A program made the translations under genes and the position numbers. DNA of 64,000 bases, taken from NCBI RefSeq assembly GCF_045037415.1, contig NZ_CP173438.1; one strand, given 5' to 3'. The first letter of the stretch is position 1, and the number at the start of each line of letters is the position of its first letter. This DNA comes from Escherichia coli (GTDB taxonomy: Bacteria > Pseudomonadota > Gammaproteobacteria > Enterobacterales > Enterobacteriaceae). Below the pieces are notes generated by a model. It made no database searches, was not told the origin of the DNA, and saw only the letters and a list, made by a program, of their open reading frames with translations. Shown here piece by piece: positions 1-50,548 of this stretch.

Positions 1-1278
1 GTAGCGCAGTATGGCTTCCGGGTCTTCCACCAGTTCCGTGGAGGTCTGCCAGCCGTTCTGCGGGTCGGTGTAATTCACCTCCACCGCCGTGTGCCGGTCC
101 TTCAGGGCACTGAAGCTGTAGCGGAATCCCACGCCGTTATCATCCACCACCACATCGCTGTTGGTGTACGGCCACACCACATCCGACGGGCGGTCCTGAA
201 CGAACGTCAGCGTCTGACCGTTCCATACCGGCATACAGCGCATCGCAGAGCAGAAATCACTGAGAACGTCCCACGCCTTACGCTGTTGTGCCAGGTACGC
301 ATTAAAGGTCATCCGCGGCTCGGTCCCCCCGAAACCATCCGGGACCGTCTGGTCGCAGTACTGCCCGATGGCATACAGCGCCCACTTGTCCACATCCGCC
401 GCCCCCAGACGTTTTCCCATGCCGTAGCGCGGGTGAGTCAGCATGTCCCACAGACACCAGGCCGGGTTGTTGCTGTATGCCGGTTTCAGACTGCCGTCCC
501 AGATACCACTATACGTGCGTTTTTCCGGGTCATAGTTTGACGGCACCTGGATGATGCGACCGCGGATATGGTAGTTCACCGTCATCTGCTGGCCGCCGAA
601 CTGCTCCGCATCCACCTGCAGCCCCACAATGGCCGTGTTCGGGTAGCACTGTTTCACATCGATGATTTCGGTGTATGACGACCACAGCGTCTTATTCTGC
701 AGCTGGTCCGTGGTGCTGTCCGCCGTCTCCCTGACCATCCGGATGTTAAAGGGCCGGGGAGGCAGATTATCCAGAATCACCGAGGCCAGGAACTGTGAGG
801 TGGTCTTGCCGTTAATGGTGACGTCCTTTTCTGTCACCCAGTTACCGTTACGCTGTAACTGAATCAGCAGGCGGACGGATGCCGGGTTACGGTCACCCTT
901 TGAGGTGGTCTCCACCAGTGACTGCACCCCGAAGGTAACCCGCAGGCGGTCAATGTTCGCGGACGTAATGGTGCGCGTCACCGGTTTTGCCTTCGTCACT
1001 TCCACGCCCAGTCCGGTTTCAGCTCCGGAGGACTCAAAGCCTTCCGGTGGTGTCTGCTCCTGCTCCCCGGCGCGCCAGACCGCCGTCACACCGTGTATCA
1101 CGGGATTGCCGTCCGTGTCCGTCAGTGGGGTTTTGTTCACCAGAATACTCTGCAGTCCCTTCACCGGACCTTCTATCGGTCCCTCACCAATCGCATCAAT
1201 CACGCTCATCATCTGCGTGGATTTGAGATTATCCTTCGCCTCACGAGGCGTGTGTGCCTTACCGCCACCTTTTCCCAT
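1..1278 (-). CDS. J: Tail tip / host specificity protein J, N-terminal ~425 codons (3' end outside window)
   Basis: Minus-strand translation from ATG at 1278 reads MGKGGGKAHTPREAKDNLKSTQMMSVIDAIGEGPIEGPV..., near-identical to lambda J N-terminus; SD GGAAGG 5 nt upstream; frame open to position 1. Confidence 0.9.
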   Translation of the reverse strand, partial: MGKGGGKAHTPREAKDNLKSTQMMSVIDAIGEGPIEGPVKGLQSILVNKTPLTDTDGNPVIHGVTAVWRAGEQEQTPPEGFESSGAETGLGVEVTKAKPVTRTITSANIDRLRVTFGVQSLVETTSKGDRNPASVRLLIQLQRNGNWVTEKDVTINGKTTSQFLASVILDNLPPRPFNIRMVRETADSTTDQLQNKTLWSSYTEIIDVKQCYPNTAIVGLQVDAEQFGGQQMTVNYHIRGRIIQVPSNYDPEKRTYSGIWDGSLKPAYSNNPAWCLWDMLTHPRYGMGKRLGAADVDKWALYAIGQYCDQTVPDGFGGTEPRMTFNAYLAQQRKAWDVLSDFCSAMRCMPVWNGQTLTFVQDRPSDVVWPYTNSDVVVDDNGVGFRYSFSALKDRHTAVEVNYTDPQNGWQTSTELVEDPEAILRY

Positions 1279-1382
1279 ACAGCCTTCCCCTGAATAAATT
1301 AACCGCCACTTGCCATTCCGTACAGAAGTCGGATATCCTTCGCCCGAAAAGCATGAAACACATTTCTGCCATGCTAAAGAGA

Positions 1383-1417
1383 AACCCCGGTATCAGCAGA
1401 TACCGGGGTTTTCTTTC
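1383..1417. terminator. Bidirectional intrinsic terminator-like hairpin in the I-J intergenic insert
   Basis: AAACCCCGGTATC-agca-GATACCGGGGTT with T-rich runs on both strands. Confidence 0.5.
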
Positions 1418-1483
1418 ATGCCCACCGATAATCCTGTTGGTTAAAACCGGTAATGGCATAAAAATTCTGAATATCTTCACATT

Positions 1484-1511
1484 TTCACACACTGACTGTG
1501 GCGCTTATAAT
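1484..1511 (+). promoter_or_regulatory. Putative sigma70 promoter, antisense to the tail operon
   Basis: TTCACA (1484-1489), 16-nt spacer, TATAAT (1506-1511). Confidence 0.4.
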
Positions 1512-1517
1512 TTCGCT

Positions 1518-1616
1518 GCGTTAGTGTTTTTTTGCCCGAGTAACAAAAACAACTCCTTAACATTGATCTTCATTTGTCTGTCCCCGCAGCTCCGCGATCA
1601 CTGCGGGATTTTTTTA
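1518..1616 (+). ncRNA. Putative ~100-nt small RNA between promoter and terminator; no ORF with start codon
   Basis: Promoter at 1484-1511 and intrinsic terminator at 1583-1616 bracket a segment lacking any ATG; contains CA-rich tract AACAAAAACAAC. Confidence 0.3.
1583..1616 (+). terminator. Intrinsic terminator (plus strand)
   Basis: CCCGCAG-ctccgcgatca-CTGCGGG followed by ATTTTTTTA. Confidence 0.55.
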
Positions 1617-1620
1617 TGTT

Positions 1621-2301
1621 TTATCCCTGTCGCCCGATAACCACGACCGTTCCGCCCCCGCCTTCATCACGGGTGCTGATGTCCTGGGATATACGGCGGG
1701 AGCCAACCAGCATTTCCCCGTAAGGCACCGGCATCGGGTTCCCCTGGGCAATCATGTTATCCAGCGAGGAAAAGTACGTGTTCTGTCTGCCGTTATCCGT
1801 TGCGCGGTAATCCGGTGTTTTTGCCTTCGGGGCCAGCATCTGGGCCACACCGCCCAGAATCATGCTGGCTCCAAGTGAAAACAGCATCGTGGTGGCAGAA
1901 AAACCACCGGCTGCCAGGGCTGAACCCCATAACGCCATTGATGCCCCGGCAGTGAAGAAAGAGCCCACGATGGCTGCCGCCCCCAGCACAATCTGCAGTC
2001 CACCCTTTCCGGCCCCGGCCAGTCGCGGCACAATATGGATGACCGTTCCCTCACCCAGCTGTTCGTGAAGACGGGCGTACACCGCCTCCGGTGCCGTGTC
2101 ATAACCGGCAATACGTATCTGGTACCAGCCTTCGTTCATCTGACGGCGAAAGCCCGGCACCTGTAACGACAGCGCCCGGATGGCTTCCGCTGCCGTGTTC
2201 ACATACAGGCTGAGGCGGCGGCCAAATCGTTGTAAATCCCCGTGAAGGCAGATGCGTGCCAGTGGCGGTGACGCCAGACAGAATGCGTTCGTCGTTGCCA
2301 T
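1621..2301 (-). CDS. I: Tail assembly protein I
   Basis: 226 aa; MATTNAFCLASPPLARICLHGDLQRFGRR... and C-terminal QNTYFSSLDNMIAQGN match lambda I. Confidence 0.9.
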   Translation of the reverse strand: MATTNAFCLASPPLARICLHGDLQRFGRRLSLYVNTAAEAIRALSLQVPGFRRQMNEGWYQIRIAGYDTAPEAVYARLHEQLGEGTVIHIVPRLAGAGKGGLQIVLGAAAIVGSFFTAGASMALWGSALAAGGFSATTMLFSLGASMILGGVAQMLAPKAKTPDYRATDNGRQNTYFSSLDNMIAQGNPMPVPYGEMLVGSRRISQDISTRDEGGGGTVVVIGRQG

Positions 2302-3992: not shown

Positions 3993-6900
3993 TCAGCATT
4001 CCTCCGTCACGTCGCATGGACAGCATCACCGCCTGCACCCGCTGGTCAATCAGCTGCACAAGACTGCCTGCCGCCTCCGCCCCTATCTGTCCGTTAGCCC
4101 CGTCATTCTGAATGGCGATGTGGTAGACCGGGGAATACACCAGACCGGCACTGCCGTTCATACTGCCCACCGCGCGTACGCCCAGCGAGCCATCCGCCGC
4201 CCGGGTCAGGGGCATAATGGCTTCAGGTCCGGCTTCCCCCATCAGCCCGGCCCCTTTTGCAAACGCAAAGTACGTGGGCGTGTCCACAATGCTGTTGCTG
4301 TACGCACTCAGGTTTGCCGAGGTATACACGCCGCCTTTTGCATTGGCCACCGCACCGCCCAGCCAGTCACCAATGCTGCCAATAAATCCTCCCGCACCGG
4401 ACATACCGTTTGCCGCCGTCTTAATTCCGTTGACAATCGCAGCATTCATAAGAACTTTTGAGATTTCCTGCAGTACGGATGAGGCCCAGTTGCGCCATTC
4501 CACTTTGTTTCCGTTCAGCATCTCCGTGATGTTATTCACCATCCCTGAGATACCCTCCGTCGCAAGCTGTGCTGCCTGTGAGGCGTAATCGGATGCATTG
4601 TCCACCCAGTTACTGAGCCCCTCCTGCAAGCCTTTCTGCCAGTCCGCACGCTGCGCATCCGATTCGGCATAAAAGGCTGCCTGGTCCTTAAGGCGTTCGC
4701 TCAGATACTGCGCGTTCTGTGCCCGTGCCTGTCTGTAAAAATCCTCACTGATATCCCCGGTCTGATACTGAGACTGAAGGTCCGCATCCTTCTGGCGGAA
4801 GCTGTCACGGATCTGCTGCAACTCCCGCATGCGTTCCCTGGCTCGTTCTCCCTGCCCGTATCCCAGCAGTTCGGCTTCATTTGATGCACGCGCAGCCACA
4901 TTATCATTCTTCAGGGTCTCTTCCCGGGATCGCAACTGTTCCCGGATTTTTTGCTGGTCAATCAGGGCCGCGTTACGCAGCAGTTCCTGCTTCTGCATCT
5001 CCGTCAGGGTTTTCAGTTCGCCCTGCGCAGTCTGGTACTTCAGCTTCGCCAGCTCTGTATTCTGACCCGCCAGTGCCAGTTGCTCTTTCTGCTGCTTCAG
5101 TAGCCGGGAAAAACTGTCTTCCGCTTTTTCCGTCTCTGATTTTCCACCCCGGGATTTAGGTTTGTTCGCCTCGTTATTACGCCAGGCTTCCAGAGCATTA
5201 CTGATATAACGCTGTCTCGCCTCCTGATACGAATCCCCCACAAAACCAAGGTCATCCGCCGCATACCCCAGCCGGGCACGCTCTTTTTCCTCCCCCTTCA
5301 GTCGGGACAGGGCCAGCTCACGTTCTGTTTTTGTCAGGGCGCTCTGCTGTTTATCATCCAGGGTGGCCTGCGGCAGCCGTAACGGTACATTCACCAGTCC
5401 CTGACGCTGCTGAAGCAGTTCATTCCCCAGCCCCAGCAGACGGTTGAATTCCGTATGCTGACCGTTCATAACCAGCATGGACTGGTACACCTTATTCTGC
5501 TCTGCCGCCTGCTGACGAATTAACGCCACACGACGGTCTTCCAGCCCGGCAAGCACATCCTGAATGGACTGCGCTTTTTCCTGCATCTGTGCCAGACGGG
5601 ACTGCTCAACGGCAAGCTGCTCTGTTGCCTGAGAAAGCCCTTCCGTCACGGTCTTCACCGATGTCAGATGGTTTATCATGAATCCGTCACCGGTTGTCCA
5701 GCCAGGGTTAGCCAGAACATACTGATATCCAGCGATTTTTTCCTGCAGGGATTTCACCCGGCTGGCCTGTTCATCAATCAGCCGGTTCTGCTCTGCCAGC
5801 GCCGCCCGTGTTCGTCCTTCATTATCTGAGGCTTCAGGCAAAGACATTGACGGCGTTTTATGCGCGATTTCATCTATCGTCAGTGCATACTGGCGCGCTG
5901 ACTCCCTGGCCTGCTCCTGATTCTGGTACAGCGTATACCATGCTGCTGCCCCCAGCATCACCAGTCCGGGTACGCCACCAACCAGTCCCAACGCACCAGT
6001 CATCAGACGTGAGCCCACCGCCGTTGTACTGTTCAGCTCATTCTGGGCTGCGGTTCTGGCAGCAATATTTCTGTTCAGGCGTTCCTGTGTGGCCGCCAGA
6101 CGGGCTTCTGCAGCAATCTGCATCTCCGTCCCGCGGGCTGCCGCCACAGCCTGCTGTGCACGGTACACGGCTGCCCTTGCCCGCGCCGTGGCAATCTGCG
6201 TCCCCCTGAGCTGTGCTTCCGCCAGTGCCACTTCATTACGTGCTGCCGTCACAAGTCCTGCCGTGGCAGACACCGCTCCGGAGGCCATATTGCCAAAGTA
6301 CCGGGCAACCCCGACGGCAACCAGCGCCCCCGCGGCTGTTGCCACATTATCAATATTACCGGCAACACCGTTCAGCACGCCGGAGAGCGTTTTCGTCGCT
6401 CCGCTGGCTTCATTCGCGCCACCCACCCAGGCCATAAAGGCGTTTTCCACCTTTGTGATCCCGTCAGAGACCGTTTCCGGCATGGCGGCATATTCATCAC
6501 GCAATACCCCCAGCTGGCTGATTAACGCAGGAACGACTTTATCCGCCGTCAGTTTGCCGTCGTCCGCCATCGCCTTAAGGTCTTTACGGGCCACGCCCAT
6601 ACCCGCAGCCAGTGCACGTACGATCCGGTCTCCGCTTTCATTGACCGAATTAAATTCCTCACCGCGTAACACACCCTGTGCCAGCGCCTGGCTGAACTGG
6701 GTGATCACCGAGCCCGCCTCTGCCGTACTGGCACCGGAGATTTTCAGCCCCGTGGAAATGGCCTCCGTCACCTTCAGCACATCATCAGCACTGTAACCAT
6801 ATTCACGCATTGAGGCTGCCGAGCGGGCAAACAGGGCCGCATTATCTGAAAATGCCGTGCCCGTCCGCTGGCTGATATCCATCAGCACTTTCTGTGATGA

Positions 6901-49538: not shown

Positions 49539-50548
49539 AACAGTTCCTCCACCGGTTTAAAGCAAGCACGCAGACGGCCAGGCGTAAACTCTTCCAGCGG
49601 CGGTGCGCTACTACAAATATCCATCGCATGCGGACAACGTGGCTGGAACGGGCAACCTTTCGGTAATCGCAGCAGGTTTGGCGGATTACCCGGAATAGTC
49701 AACATTGTTTCACCTTCCGCATCGAGACGCGGCACCGCGTTGAGCAAACCGATAGAATAAGGATGTACGGGTTGATAAAAGACATCGCGCGCGTTGCCAT
49801 ATTCCATCGTGCGCCCGGCGTACATTACCAGCACTTTGTCGCAGATCCCCGCCACCACGCCAAGATCGTGGGTAATCATAATGATGGCGGTATTAAATTC
49901 CCGCTTCAGTTCATTCAATAGCGTCATGATCTGCGCCTGTACGGTGACGTCCAGCGCAGTAGTGGGTTCATCCGCAATCAGCAGCTTAGGTCGACATAGC
50001 AATGCCATCGCAATCATGACTCGCTGACGCATGCCGCCAGAAAATTCGTGCGGGTACATTTTCATGCGTTTACGCGCTTCCGGCATTTTTACCGCATCGA
50101 GCATCCGCACCGATTCTTCAAACGCCTCAGCTTTGCTCATGTTCTTATGCAGCATCAGCACTTCCATCAACTGCTCACCGACGCGCATATAGGGATTCAA
50201 CGAAGTCATTGGGTCCTGAAAAATCATTGAGATTTGTTCAGCTCGCAGTTTATTGAGTTCATGCTCTGGCAAATTGAGGATTTCACGCCCATTGAAGGTT
50301 GCCGATCCGCCAATACGTCCGTTGGCAGCTAACAGGCCCATCAACGCGAATGCGGTTTGCGATTTGCCCGAACCAGACTCACCTACGATGCCCAGCGTTT
50401 CTCCGGCACGTAGCGAAAAATTCAAATCATTGACCGCCGTGACGTCGCCATCCGGGGTACTAAAGGTGACACGCAAATCTTTCACGTTCAGCAGTGCGTC
50501 AGCCTGTTGTTGTGCGAGCGGCACAGTTGCAGTTTCAATTACGCTCAT
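49535..50548 (-). CDS. oppD: Oligopeptide ABC transporter ATP-binding protein OppD
   Basis: 337 aa, Walker A GESGSGKSQ. Confidence 0.9.
   Translation of the reverse strand: MSVIETATVPLAQQQADALLNVKDLRVTFSTPDGDVTAVNDLNFSLRAGETLGIVGESGSGKSQTAFALMGLLAANGRIGGSATFNGREILNLPEHELNKLRAEQISMIFQDPMTSLNPYMRVGEQLMEVLMLHKNMSKAEAFEESVRMLDAVKMPEARKRMKMYPHEFSGGMRQRVMIAMALLCRPKLLIADEPTTALDVTVQAQIMTLLNELKREFNTAIIMITHDLGVVAGICDKVLVMYAGRTMEYGNARDVFYQPVHPYSIGLLNAVPRLDAEGETMLTIPGNPPNLLRLPKGCPFQPRCPHAMDICSSAPPLEEFTPGRLRACFKPVEELL

Follow-up and report, generated by a model that had tools for sequence, protein, structure and literature searches.

In a 64,000-nucleotide (nt) stretch of Escherichia coli DNA (contig NZ_CP173438.1; the whole stretch is referred to as the window) the tail genes I and J of a prophage are separated by a gap of 342 bp, which carries a promoter and a terminator directed against the tail operon. 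As judged by sequence comparison, the RNA encoded between them is a diverged allele of the EcOnc22/23/24 family of Hfq-associated small RNAs (sRNAs). The original prediction, which was made from the sequence of the window without database searches, had proposed that an sRNA with its own promoter and terminator is encoded at this place, in antisense to the tail operon. This view is supported, the homologues in E. coli O157:H7 Sakai being experimentally detected Hfq-bound sRNAs. The separation of 342 bp had also been given correctly, as follows from the positions of the J start codon and the I stop codon. The features assigned to the locus are:

1-1278, minus strand: N-terminus of the central tail fiber protein J (PHROG profile phrog_31, E 5.6e-269), with the ATG at 1278-1276
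1279-1620: I–J intergenic spacer of 342 bp between the J start and the I stop
1279-1454, either strand: left half of the gap, present in PPompW-type prophages only; beyond the hairpin no role is assigned to it
1383-1417, both strands: strong bidirectional hairpin that separates the sRNA promoter from the J start
1455-1620, plus strand: conserved module made up of upstream block, promoter, sRNA and terminator, with homologues in the I–J gaps of Sakai Sp11/Sp14/Sp15 and of many Stx phages
1465-1484, plus strand: conserved block TTCTGAA-NN-TCTTCACATTT (TTCTGAATATCTTCACATTT) upstream of the −35 region, containing a TGAA-N4-TTCA palindrome
1484-1511, plus strand: sigma-70 promoter (TTCACA 1484-1489, 16-nt spacer, TATAAT 1506-1511)
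1505-1573, minus strand (the tail-operon strand): open reading frame (ORF) of 22 codons, MKINVKELFLLLGQKNTNAAKL, judged not to be a gene
1518-1615, plus strand: predicted sRNA of ~96-98 nt; its +1 G1518 is deduced from the −10 spacing and the conserved GCGUUA
1527-1533, plus strand: U7 run near the 5′ end; weak pairing with the A-rich tract or a U-rich Hfq contact is possible
1542-1553, plus strand: (A-A-N)4 tract AAC AAA AAC AAC (AACAAAAACAAC) of the Hfq distal-face (ARN) type
1552-1573, plus strand: candidate seed block ACUCCUUAAC…AUCUUCAU, single-stranded and conserved, with an anti-Shine-Dalgarno-like UCCUU and an invariant AUCUU
1583-1615, plus strand: intrinsic terminator (CCCGCAG 1583-1589, 11-nt loop, CTGCGGG 1601-1607, A + T7 1608-1615)
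1621-2301, minus strand: tail assembly protein I (PHROG profile phrog_32, E 6.5e-79), with the stop codon at 1623-1621

The promoter matches the sigma-70 consensus at 11 of 12 positions, which bears out the near-consensus elements (TTCACA, 16-nt spacer, TATAAT) originally described, and three promoter-like sites were found in the interval 1000-2000 compared to 0.5 ± 0.6 in shuffled sequences. TTCACA occurs twice in this region. The copy at 1476-1481 is universally conserved and is not the −35 element; the second copy (1484-1489), which is specific for the allele group of the window, represents the −35 region. The block at 1465-1484 is near-invariant across 39 promoter variants while the −35 region varies, it is replaced in a variant carrying the gene sodC (see below), and it is possibly an UP element or the binding site of a regulator. 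The transcribed segment had been described as free of start codons; indeed it lacks ATG, but GTG and TTG are present. A strong intrinsic terminator, expected at 1583-1616 just before the I stop codon, was confirmed by its 7-bp GC stem followed by A + T7, and it stops 5 nt short of the stop codon. On the minus strand the terminator hairpin is not trailed by a U tract, and late transcription should therefore not be halted there.

PPompW-type prophages and ~870 complete E. coli genomes carry the entire 342-bp gap with 100% identity. Only its right half (1455-1620, query positions 177-342) is common to many Stx1/Stx2 long-tailed phages, with 74-77% identity; for VT1-Sakai the identity to the window is 74% over 166 nt (E 3e-20). 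The Sakai genome (NC_002695.2) contains I–J gaps of this kind in the prophages Sp15 (2902691-2902930), Sp14 (2676622-2676861) and Sp11 (2166672-2166911). Homologous peaks of Hfq binding, detected by cross-linking and analysis of cDNA (CRAC), are listed in Table S2 of Tree et al. (2014, Mol Cell, PMC4104026) for EcOnc22 in Sp15 (2902714-2902774), EcOnc23 in Sp14 (2676643-2676704) and EcOnc24 in Sp11 (2166694-2166753), all on the plus strand. For EcOnc22 of the Sakai strain the same table records a band of ~85 nt on the Northern blot, which is classified as 'Destabilised' in the Δhfq strain. The published coordinates and the plus strand of EcOnc22/23/24 fall inside the three Sakai I–J gaps. These coordinates refer to NC_002695.1, and offsets were calibrated against NC_002695.2, giving +142 at AgvB1, +133 at the repeat of the sRNA HnrS in Sp12 and +135 via a read from cross-linking, ligation and sequencing of hybrids (CLASH). 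Along the record NC_002695.2 the offset is ~+142 at 1.27-1.94 Mb, +133 to +135 at 2.2-2.9 Mb and +129 to +133 at 5.1 Mb; the same version correction applies whenever coordinates of PMC4104026 and PMC5286369 are mapped onto the current RefSeq record.

The identification of EcOnc22 rests on sequence, because the published CLASH read matches the Sakai I–J locus. According to the RNase E-CLASH data (Waters et al., PMC5286369, supplementary file 9) the EcOnc22/EcOnc23 halves of hybrid reads consist of GCCTGAAAAATAACTCCATAACGTTAATCTTCA, and this read corresponds to positions 1353-1385 of our Sakai locus L004, within the body of the homologous RNA in Sakai. The Sakai RNA is predicted to start with a +1 G at L004 1337 and to end in the U tract at ~1424-1427, and the resulting length of 88-91 nt fits the ~85-nt band. 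Since the CLASH read, the coordinates and the predicted length tie the Sakai homologue to EcOnc22/23, the window copy is placed in the EcOnc22/23/24 family. A homology search against described prophage sRNAs, as had been suggested, leads to the EcOnc22/23/24 loci and not to AgvB or AsxR. No Rfam family matched the element, neither in the whole window at the gathering threshold nor in 1000-2000 at E ≤ 10, where the weak matches were terminator-driven only. Literature searches by sequence fragment and for tail-region sRNAs revealed nothing further.

The window unit and the Sakai alleles occupy the same I–J slot and are both antisense to the tail genes. Also common to them are the position of the −10 region, the 5′ end GCGUUA, the run of U, the (AAN)n tract, the UCCWUA…AAUCUUCAU block and a CCCGCAG/CUGCGGG terminator that ends in a U7 tail. 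Nevertheless, the identity of the RNAs is only ~72% (71 of 99 aligned columns). The window RNA is 8 nt longer with another loop at the 5′ end, its candidate seed differs by three substitutions (CCUUAACAUUG vs CCAUAACGUUA), its promoter (TTCACA-16-TATAAT) is much nearer to the consensus than that of the Sakai allele (TTCCGG-17-AATAAT), and the left half of its gap is ~100 bp longer and unrelated. Slot, strand and homology therefore agree with those of the family, and an own promoter and a Rho-independent terminator for an RNA of ~85-100 nt are predicted. Hfq binding and stability were measured for the Sakai alleles; the window allele shows the motifs, a U7 tail and (AAN)4. What is known is thus the EcOnc22/23/24 family, which is functionally uncharacterised, and what is new is the diverged allele of the window with other seed positions and a stronger promoter.

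A terminator-anchored scan of IMG/VR together with a J-anchored scan yielded ~200 loci of the family with 46 distinct RNA alleles. The unit is bordered by J in 107 of 108 loci and, at its opposite end, by I in 114 of 116. Among 5426 complete E. coli genomes the family was found in 1807, at 5244 places, with a median of 2 and a maximum of 10 copies per genome, and it is never annotated in these genome records. A strict-pattern scan of the GTDB species representatives (100,044 genomes) gave a single match (L132, NZ_FWPT01000051.1) on a 460-bp contig of Parendozoicomonas haliclonae, which is probably a contamination by E. coli phage DNA. At this stringency the family thus seems to be limited to prophages of the E. 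coli type.

All alleles keep the −10 region (TATAAT, AATAAT, GATAAT or TATCAT), whose distance to the GCGUUA 5′ end is constant; the −35 region is allele-specific, near-consensus in the window allele and TTCCGG in the Sakai allele. GCGUUA, the U-run, the A-rich tract, the CCCGCAG/CUGCGGG terminator with its U tail and the UCC(W)UA…AAUCUUC block are retained in all or nearly all 46 alleles, and AUCUU is invariant. The consensus structure obtained by RNAalifold consists of the terminator alone, with the ~65 nt at the 5′ end unstructured or forming a weak hairpin between U-run and A-run. Across the 46 alleles the A-rich tract varies at every third column only (columns 29, 32, 35 and 38, with 2-4 bases each), and the A-A columns hold A in 41-46 of 46 alleles. 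This pattern is the signature of an (A-A-N)n/ARN repeat, the motif of the Hfq distal face, and an ARN motif is also present in AgvB and AsxR (Tree et al., PMC4104026).

The original prediction assumed that I and J are adjacent in phage lambda, which is not strictly the case. Lambda I ends at 15444 and J starts at 15505, leaving a spacer of 60 bp. A terminator-like hairpin is already present in it and corresponds in position to those that the window and Sakai have upstream of J. This spacer (15445-15504; L135 946-1005) includes a GC-rich hairpin, after which UUUUGUCAUUU comes in the sense of the late operon, and this element resembles a terminator inside that operon. Because the hairpin is present in lambda, the extra material of the window comprises the promoter–RNA–terminator unit and ~100 bp of left-half sequence specific to the prophage type. 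A second, bidirectional terminator had been postulated at 1383-1417, and the hairpin was verified: its stem of 10 bp (1385-1394/1399-1408) encloses an AGCA loop, T-rich runs are found on either strand, and the folding z-scores are −6.1 for the plus and −5.3 for the minus strand. In position it also matches the CAGGCACCC…GGGTGCCTG hairpin just upstream of J in Sakai. The hairpin of the short-type I–J gap shows one compensatory change (C-G to T-A). In locus L130 the left-half hairpin is deleted. A weak promoter-like site (TTGCCA-18-TATCCT, 1310-1339, plus strand) lies ahead of the bidirectional hairpin of the window. For this reason a second RNA of ~80 nt from the left half is conceivable, but it is unsupported.

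Among 71 loci whose J N-terminus is ≥98% identical to that of the window, the sRNA terminator is present in every one, and no empty I–J site was found among these close relatives. Their gaps measure 235-240 bp when the left half is short, 341-344 bp when it is long as in the window, or 851 bp. The 851-bp type, found in 8 of the 71 loci, carries the Cu/Zn superoxide dismutase gene sodC in the orientation of the sRNA (NF007628 SodC, 218 bits, cutoff 165); an example is L137 840-1367 (minus strand), and seven similar loci are found in IMG/VR. Here sodC and its terminator replace the promoter block of the sRNA, and the sRNA body and terminator are kept downstream; the sRNA may be silent at these loci or be fed by transcription of sodC. 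The long left half occurs with at least two different sRNA alleles, and mosaic exchange is evident from this. A moron, in the sense in which Juhala et al. 2000 are said to have used the concept, is extra DNA between conserved phage genes which has its own promoter and terminator and is absent from related phages. The 342-bp gap, compared to 60 bp in lambda, corresponds to this description, and the moron interpretation fits because sodC is an alternative cargo of the slot and lambda has only the spacer with the hairpin. Like the classical lambdoid morons (lom, bor and the tail-region sodC) the unit is an extra element with own promoter and terminator between conserved phage genes; unlike in those, the cargo in the window is a non-coding RNA and not a protein gene.

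Based on these data we consider it likely that the I–J spacer harbours a moron-type autonomous sRNA gene and that its product, an EcOnc22/23/24 allele, is an Hfq-dependent base-pairing RNA acting in trans. Its direction opposite to the late tail operon allows the sRNA to be expressed in the lysogen. The U-tail at the 3′ end would bind to the proximal face of Hfq and the (A-A-N)3-4 tract to the distal face, as in class-II-like sRNAs. The unstructured block ACUCCUUAAC…AUCUUCAU would function as the seed and would most plausibly pair with GGAG/AAGGAG-like regions at which ribosomes bind to mRNAs of the host or of phages. All CLASH hybrid fragments of the Sakai alleles cover the stretch equivalent to 1552-1573. 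As the seed positions differ between alleles, the targets may be allele-specific. The anatomy of the gene, its homology and its conservation throughout the family are established, as are expression and Hfq dependence of the Sakai alleles by experiment; for the window allele, expression, seed and targets as well as the sign of its regulation are presumed.

Several points weigh against this interpretation. The measured expression is that of the Sakai alleles, from which expression of the window allele is deduced, and the transcription start site of the window RNA is a prediction. The CLASH hybrids of the Sakai alleles comprise 1-2 reads each, with the yjbJ coding sequence (codon ~44) and with ECs5349 (PMC5286369), and a 2021 review lists the function of EcOnc22/23/24 as unknown (PMC7873438). 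The view of the seed as anti-Shine-Dalgarno sequence is soft, because CUCC is UUCC in one common allele. Furthermore, complements of 10 nt to the seed occur three times in the 64-kb window, with ~3 expected, and thus at chance frequency. One 10-mer in the ribosome-binding site of oppD (GUUAAGGAGU, 50564-50555, minus strand; oppD start at 50548) is a perfect complement to ACUCCUUAAC. Since such complements are found at chance rate in the window, this match is no evidence for targeting.

Of the other explanations, two would be compatible with action in trans. The RNA could act as a cis-antisense RNA, pairing with the I–J spacer in the late transcript of its own or of a related incoming phage with consequences for processing, modulation of J or superinfection exclusion. 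Its confinement to the I–J junction, the antisense orientation to the late operon and the full complementarity to the spacer, given by construction, are in line with such a role, as is a strong Shine-Dalgarno-like UAAGGAG in the complementary stretch of the late mRNA. However, the RNA stops before the I stop codon and is 240-340 nt away from the J start, so that it overlaps neither coding sequence nor the ribosome-binding site of J. Moreover, according to the Sakai data it is made in uninduced lysogens, which lack the late mRNA, its Hfq dependence is typical of trans-acting sRNAs, and AgvB-type sRNAs are equally bound to their slot yet do not act in cis. We therefore regard a cis-antisense role as unlikely.

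A role as a sponge for a core sRNA other than GcvB is slightly less probable still. In this case an mRNA-like binder of the Hfq distal face would titrate a class-I sRNA, for which the conserved (AAN)n distal-face motif and the multicopy nature of the family would be suitable, and AgvB and AsxR of the same Sakai strain are precedents for anti-sRNAs. Nevertheless, no sponge partner was identified, and the CLASH hybrids seen involve mRNAs. The UCCUU block is anti-Shine-Dalgarno-like and not Shine-Dalgarno-like, which is the polarity of an sRNA seed rather than of an mRNA mimic.

It is very unlikely that the unit is a non-functional remnant or a transcriptional insulator, whose hairpins stabilise or punctuate the late mRNA and whose promoter is fortuitous. 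The hairpin in the lambda spacer and the bidirectional hairpin in the left half of the window gap would agree with this idea, but the promoter position, the 5′ end, (AAN)n and AUCUU are kept across 46 alleles despite ~28% divergence, and the Sakai alleles yield a discrete Hfq-dependent RNA (PMC4104026).

The original prediction had suspected an AgvB-like anti-sRNA whose CA-rich tract could pair with GU-rich seeds such as R1 of GcvB; such a sponge would de-repress the opp and dpp transporters. The tract AACAAAAACAAC (1542-1553) is indeed A/C-rich, and AgvB-type anti-sRNAs with ARN motifs are known from prophages of enterohaemorrhagic E. coli (PMC4104026). This identity was rejected as highly improbable, since covariance models, genomic slot, the CACAACA motif, pairing length and tract variation are all against it. 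The proposed Rfam check for AgvB (RF02702) and AsxR (RF02703) gave no match in 1000-2000 at E ≤ 10 or in the whole window at the gathering threshold, whereas the same models detected the genuine Sakai genes in a positive control with 96.5 bits (AgvB) and 88.1 bits (AsxR). AgvB is located at a moron site downstream of PR′, is convergent with an RNA of the STnc100/EcOnc27 type and measures 51-60 nt (PMC4104026). The STnc100 RNA of the window (23751-23940, minus strand, 132 bits by Rfam) is 22 kb away from the I–J gap, and the Rfam models revealed no AgvB/AsxR-type RNA beside it, unlike in Sakai Sp5 and Sp10.

The proposed pairing with GcvB R1 did not hold either. The R1 target consensus CACAACA is absent from the window RNA, and the longest Watson-Crick helix between its unstructured part and R1 has 6 bp (AACAAC/GUUGUU), compared to 12 bp for AgvB. 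Duplex energies were scored for 24-nt windows against a background of real sequence, the 24-mers of the window. The best duplex of tract and R1 reaches −12 to −14 kcal/mol and is thus within this background, whose 5th percentile is −16.8. Furthermore, the tract is not kept as a CA sequence, reading AAAAAUAAC in Sakai and AAGAAUAAU in another allele, and varies as (AAN)n and not as a complement of GcvB. The presence of the GcvB target gene oppA in the window, which had been pointed out, has no bearing on the sRNA element. Like AgvB (EcOnc01) and AsxR (EcOnc02), the window RNA would be a short Hfq-associated prophage RNA with an ARN motif and an intrinsic terminator, a moron whose 3′ part is conserved, whose pairing regions vary and which is, as predicted from its sequence, expressed in the lysogen. 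It differs from them in its slot, its length of ~97 nt instead of 51-60 nt, the missing R1 complement and the absence of any similarity in sequence or covariance model.

An equally improbable explanation is that the tail-operon strand encodes a small protein, with the plus-strand signals being incidental or belonging to a type-I-like antitoxin. An ATG-initiated ORF (MKINV…) on the minus strand encodes 22 amino acids in the window and 39-41 in some alleles. The ORFs share the N-terminus MKINV·ELF, some alleles share the C-terminus NVK·FRNFIPS, and the frame is sometimes annotated as a hypothetical protein. Nevertheless, variable sites are distributed over codon positions 1, 2 and 3 as 12/15/14, and thus show no third-position excess. 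In the window allele, which is the commonest, the ORF is cut to 22 amino acids by a stop within the −10 region. Several lineages, among them the abundant type represented by L138 (31 loci), have lost the start codon, and the L072 lineage has a 1-nt indel that causes a frameshift but leaves the nucleotide motif intact. The peptide, which is not hydrophobic, had no match among the PHROG profiles, and the apparent wobble pattern is due to the 3-nt periodicity of (AAN)n. The ORF was therefore rejected as a gene, and a conserved protein-coding frame, which according to the original prediction would have argued against an sRNA, was not found, the ORF being without constraint at the codon level. A 128-codon stop-free GTG frame (1254-1640, plus strand) across the gap and both hairpins is judged to be a product of chance and is absent from the Sakai-type gap.

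A model of how an RNA such as the one proposed here for the I–J gap can matter is provided by HnrS (EcOnc10/11/12), which pairs with the hha ribosome-binding site (bioRxiv 10.1101/2025.11.27.690950). Like the EcOnc22/23/24 family, HnrS is a multicopy sRNA from a prophage late region and emerged from the same screen. It differs by its unrelated sequence, its slot near the lysis genes, its length of 66 nt and its established target. Other matches at the Rfam gathering threshold in the window prophage are a sok antitoxin RNA (29412-29587, minus strand, 120 bits), DicF (36015-36066, plus strand, 77 bits) and two tRNAs (24640-24713 and 24817-24889, both on the minus strand).

The main value of the finding in the window is corrective: the sRNA gene is real, and it is not an AgvB-like sponge of GcvB. 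In addition, the I–J junction is revealed as a moron slot that accommodates the sRNA, sodC or both. The family is present in about one third of the complete E. coli genomes, often in several copies, and it is overrepresented in Stx prophages and further lambdoid prophages from pathogenic lineages. Hfq binding of the founding members was demonstrated a decade ago, and no Rfam model exists. More tentatively, it is possible that the family represents a large, unannotated and multi-allelic group of class-II-like Hfq sRNAs, in which a fixed scaffold (GCGUUA, (AAN)n, AUCUU, terminator) is combined with diversifying pairing positions. Up to ten copies per genome, stacked by prophages, might then reprogram host expression, as HnrS does for hha, or counter the late mRNA of competing lambdoid phages, and the window allele, having a near-consensus promoter and a seed variant of its own, would act on other targets than EcOnc22. 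With the conserved scaffold, the (AAN)n Hfq motif and the allele-specific candidate seed now defined, target prediction and mutational tests become straightforward.

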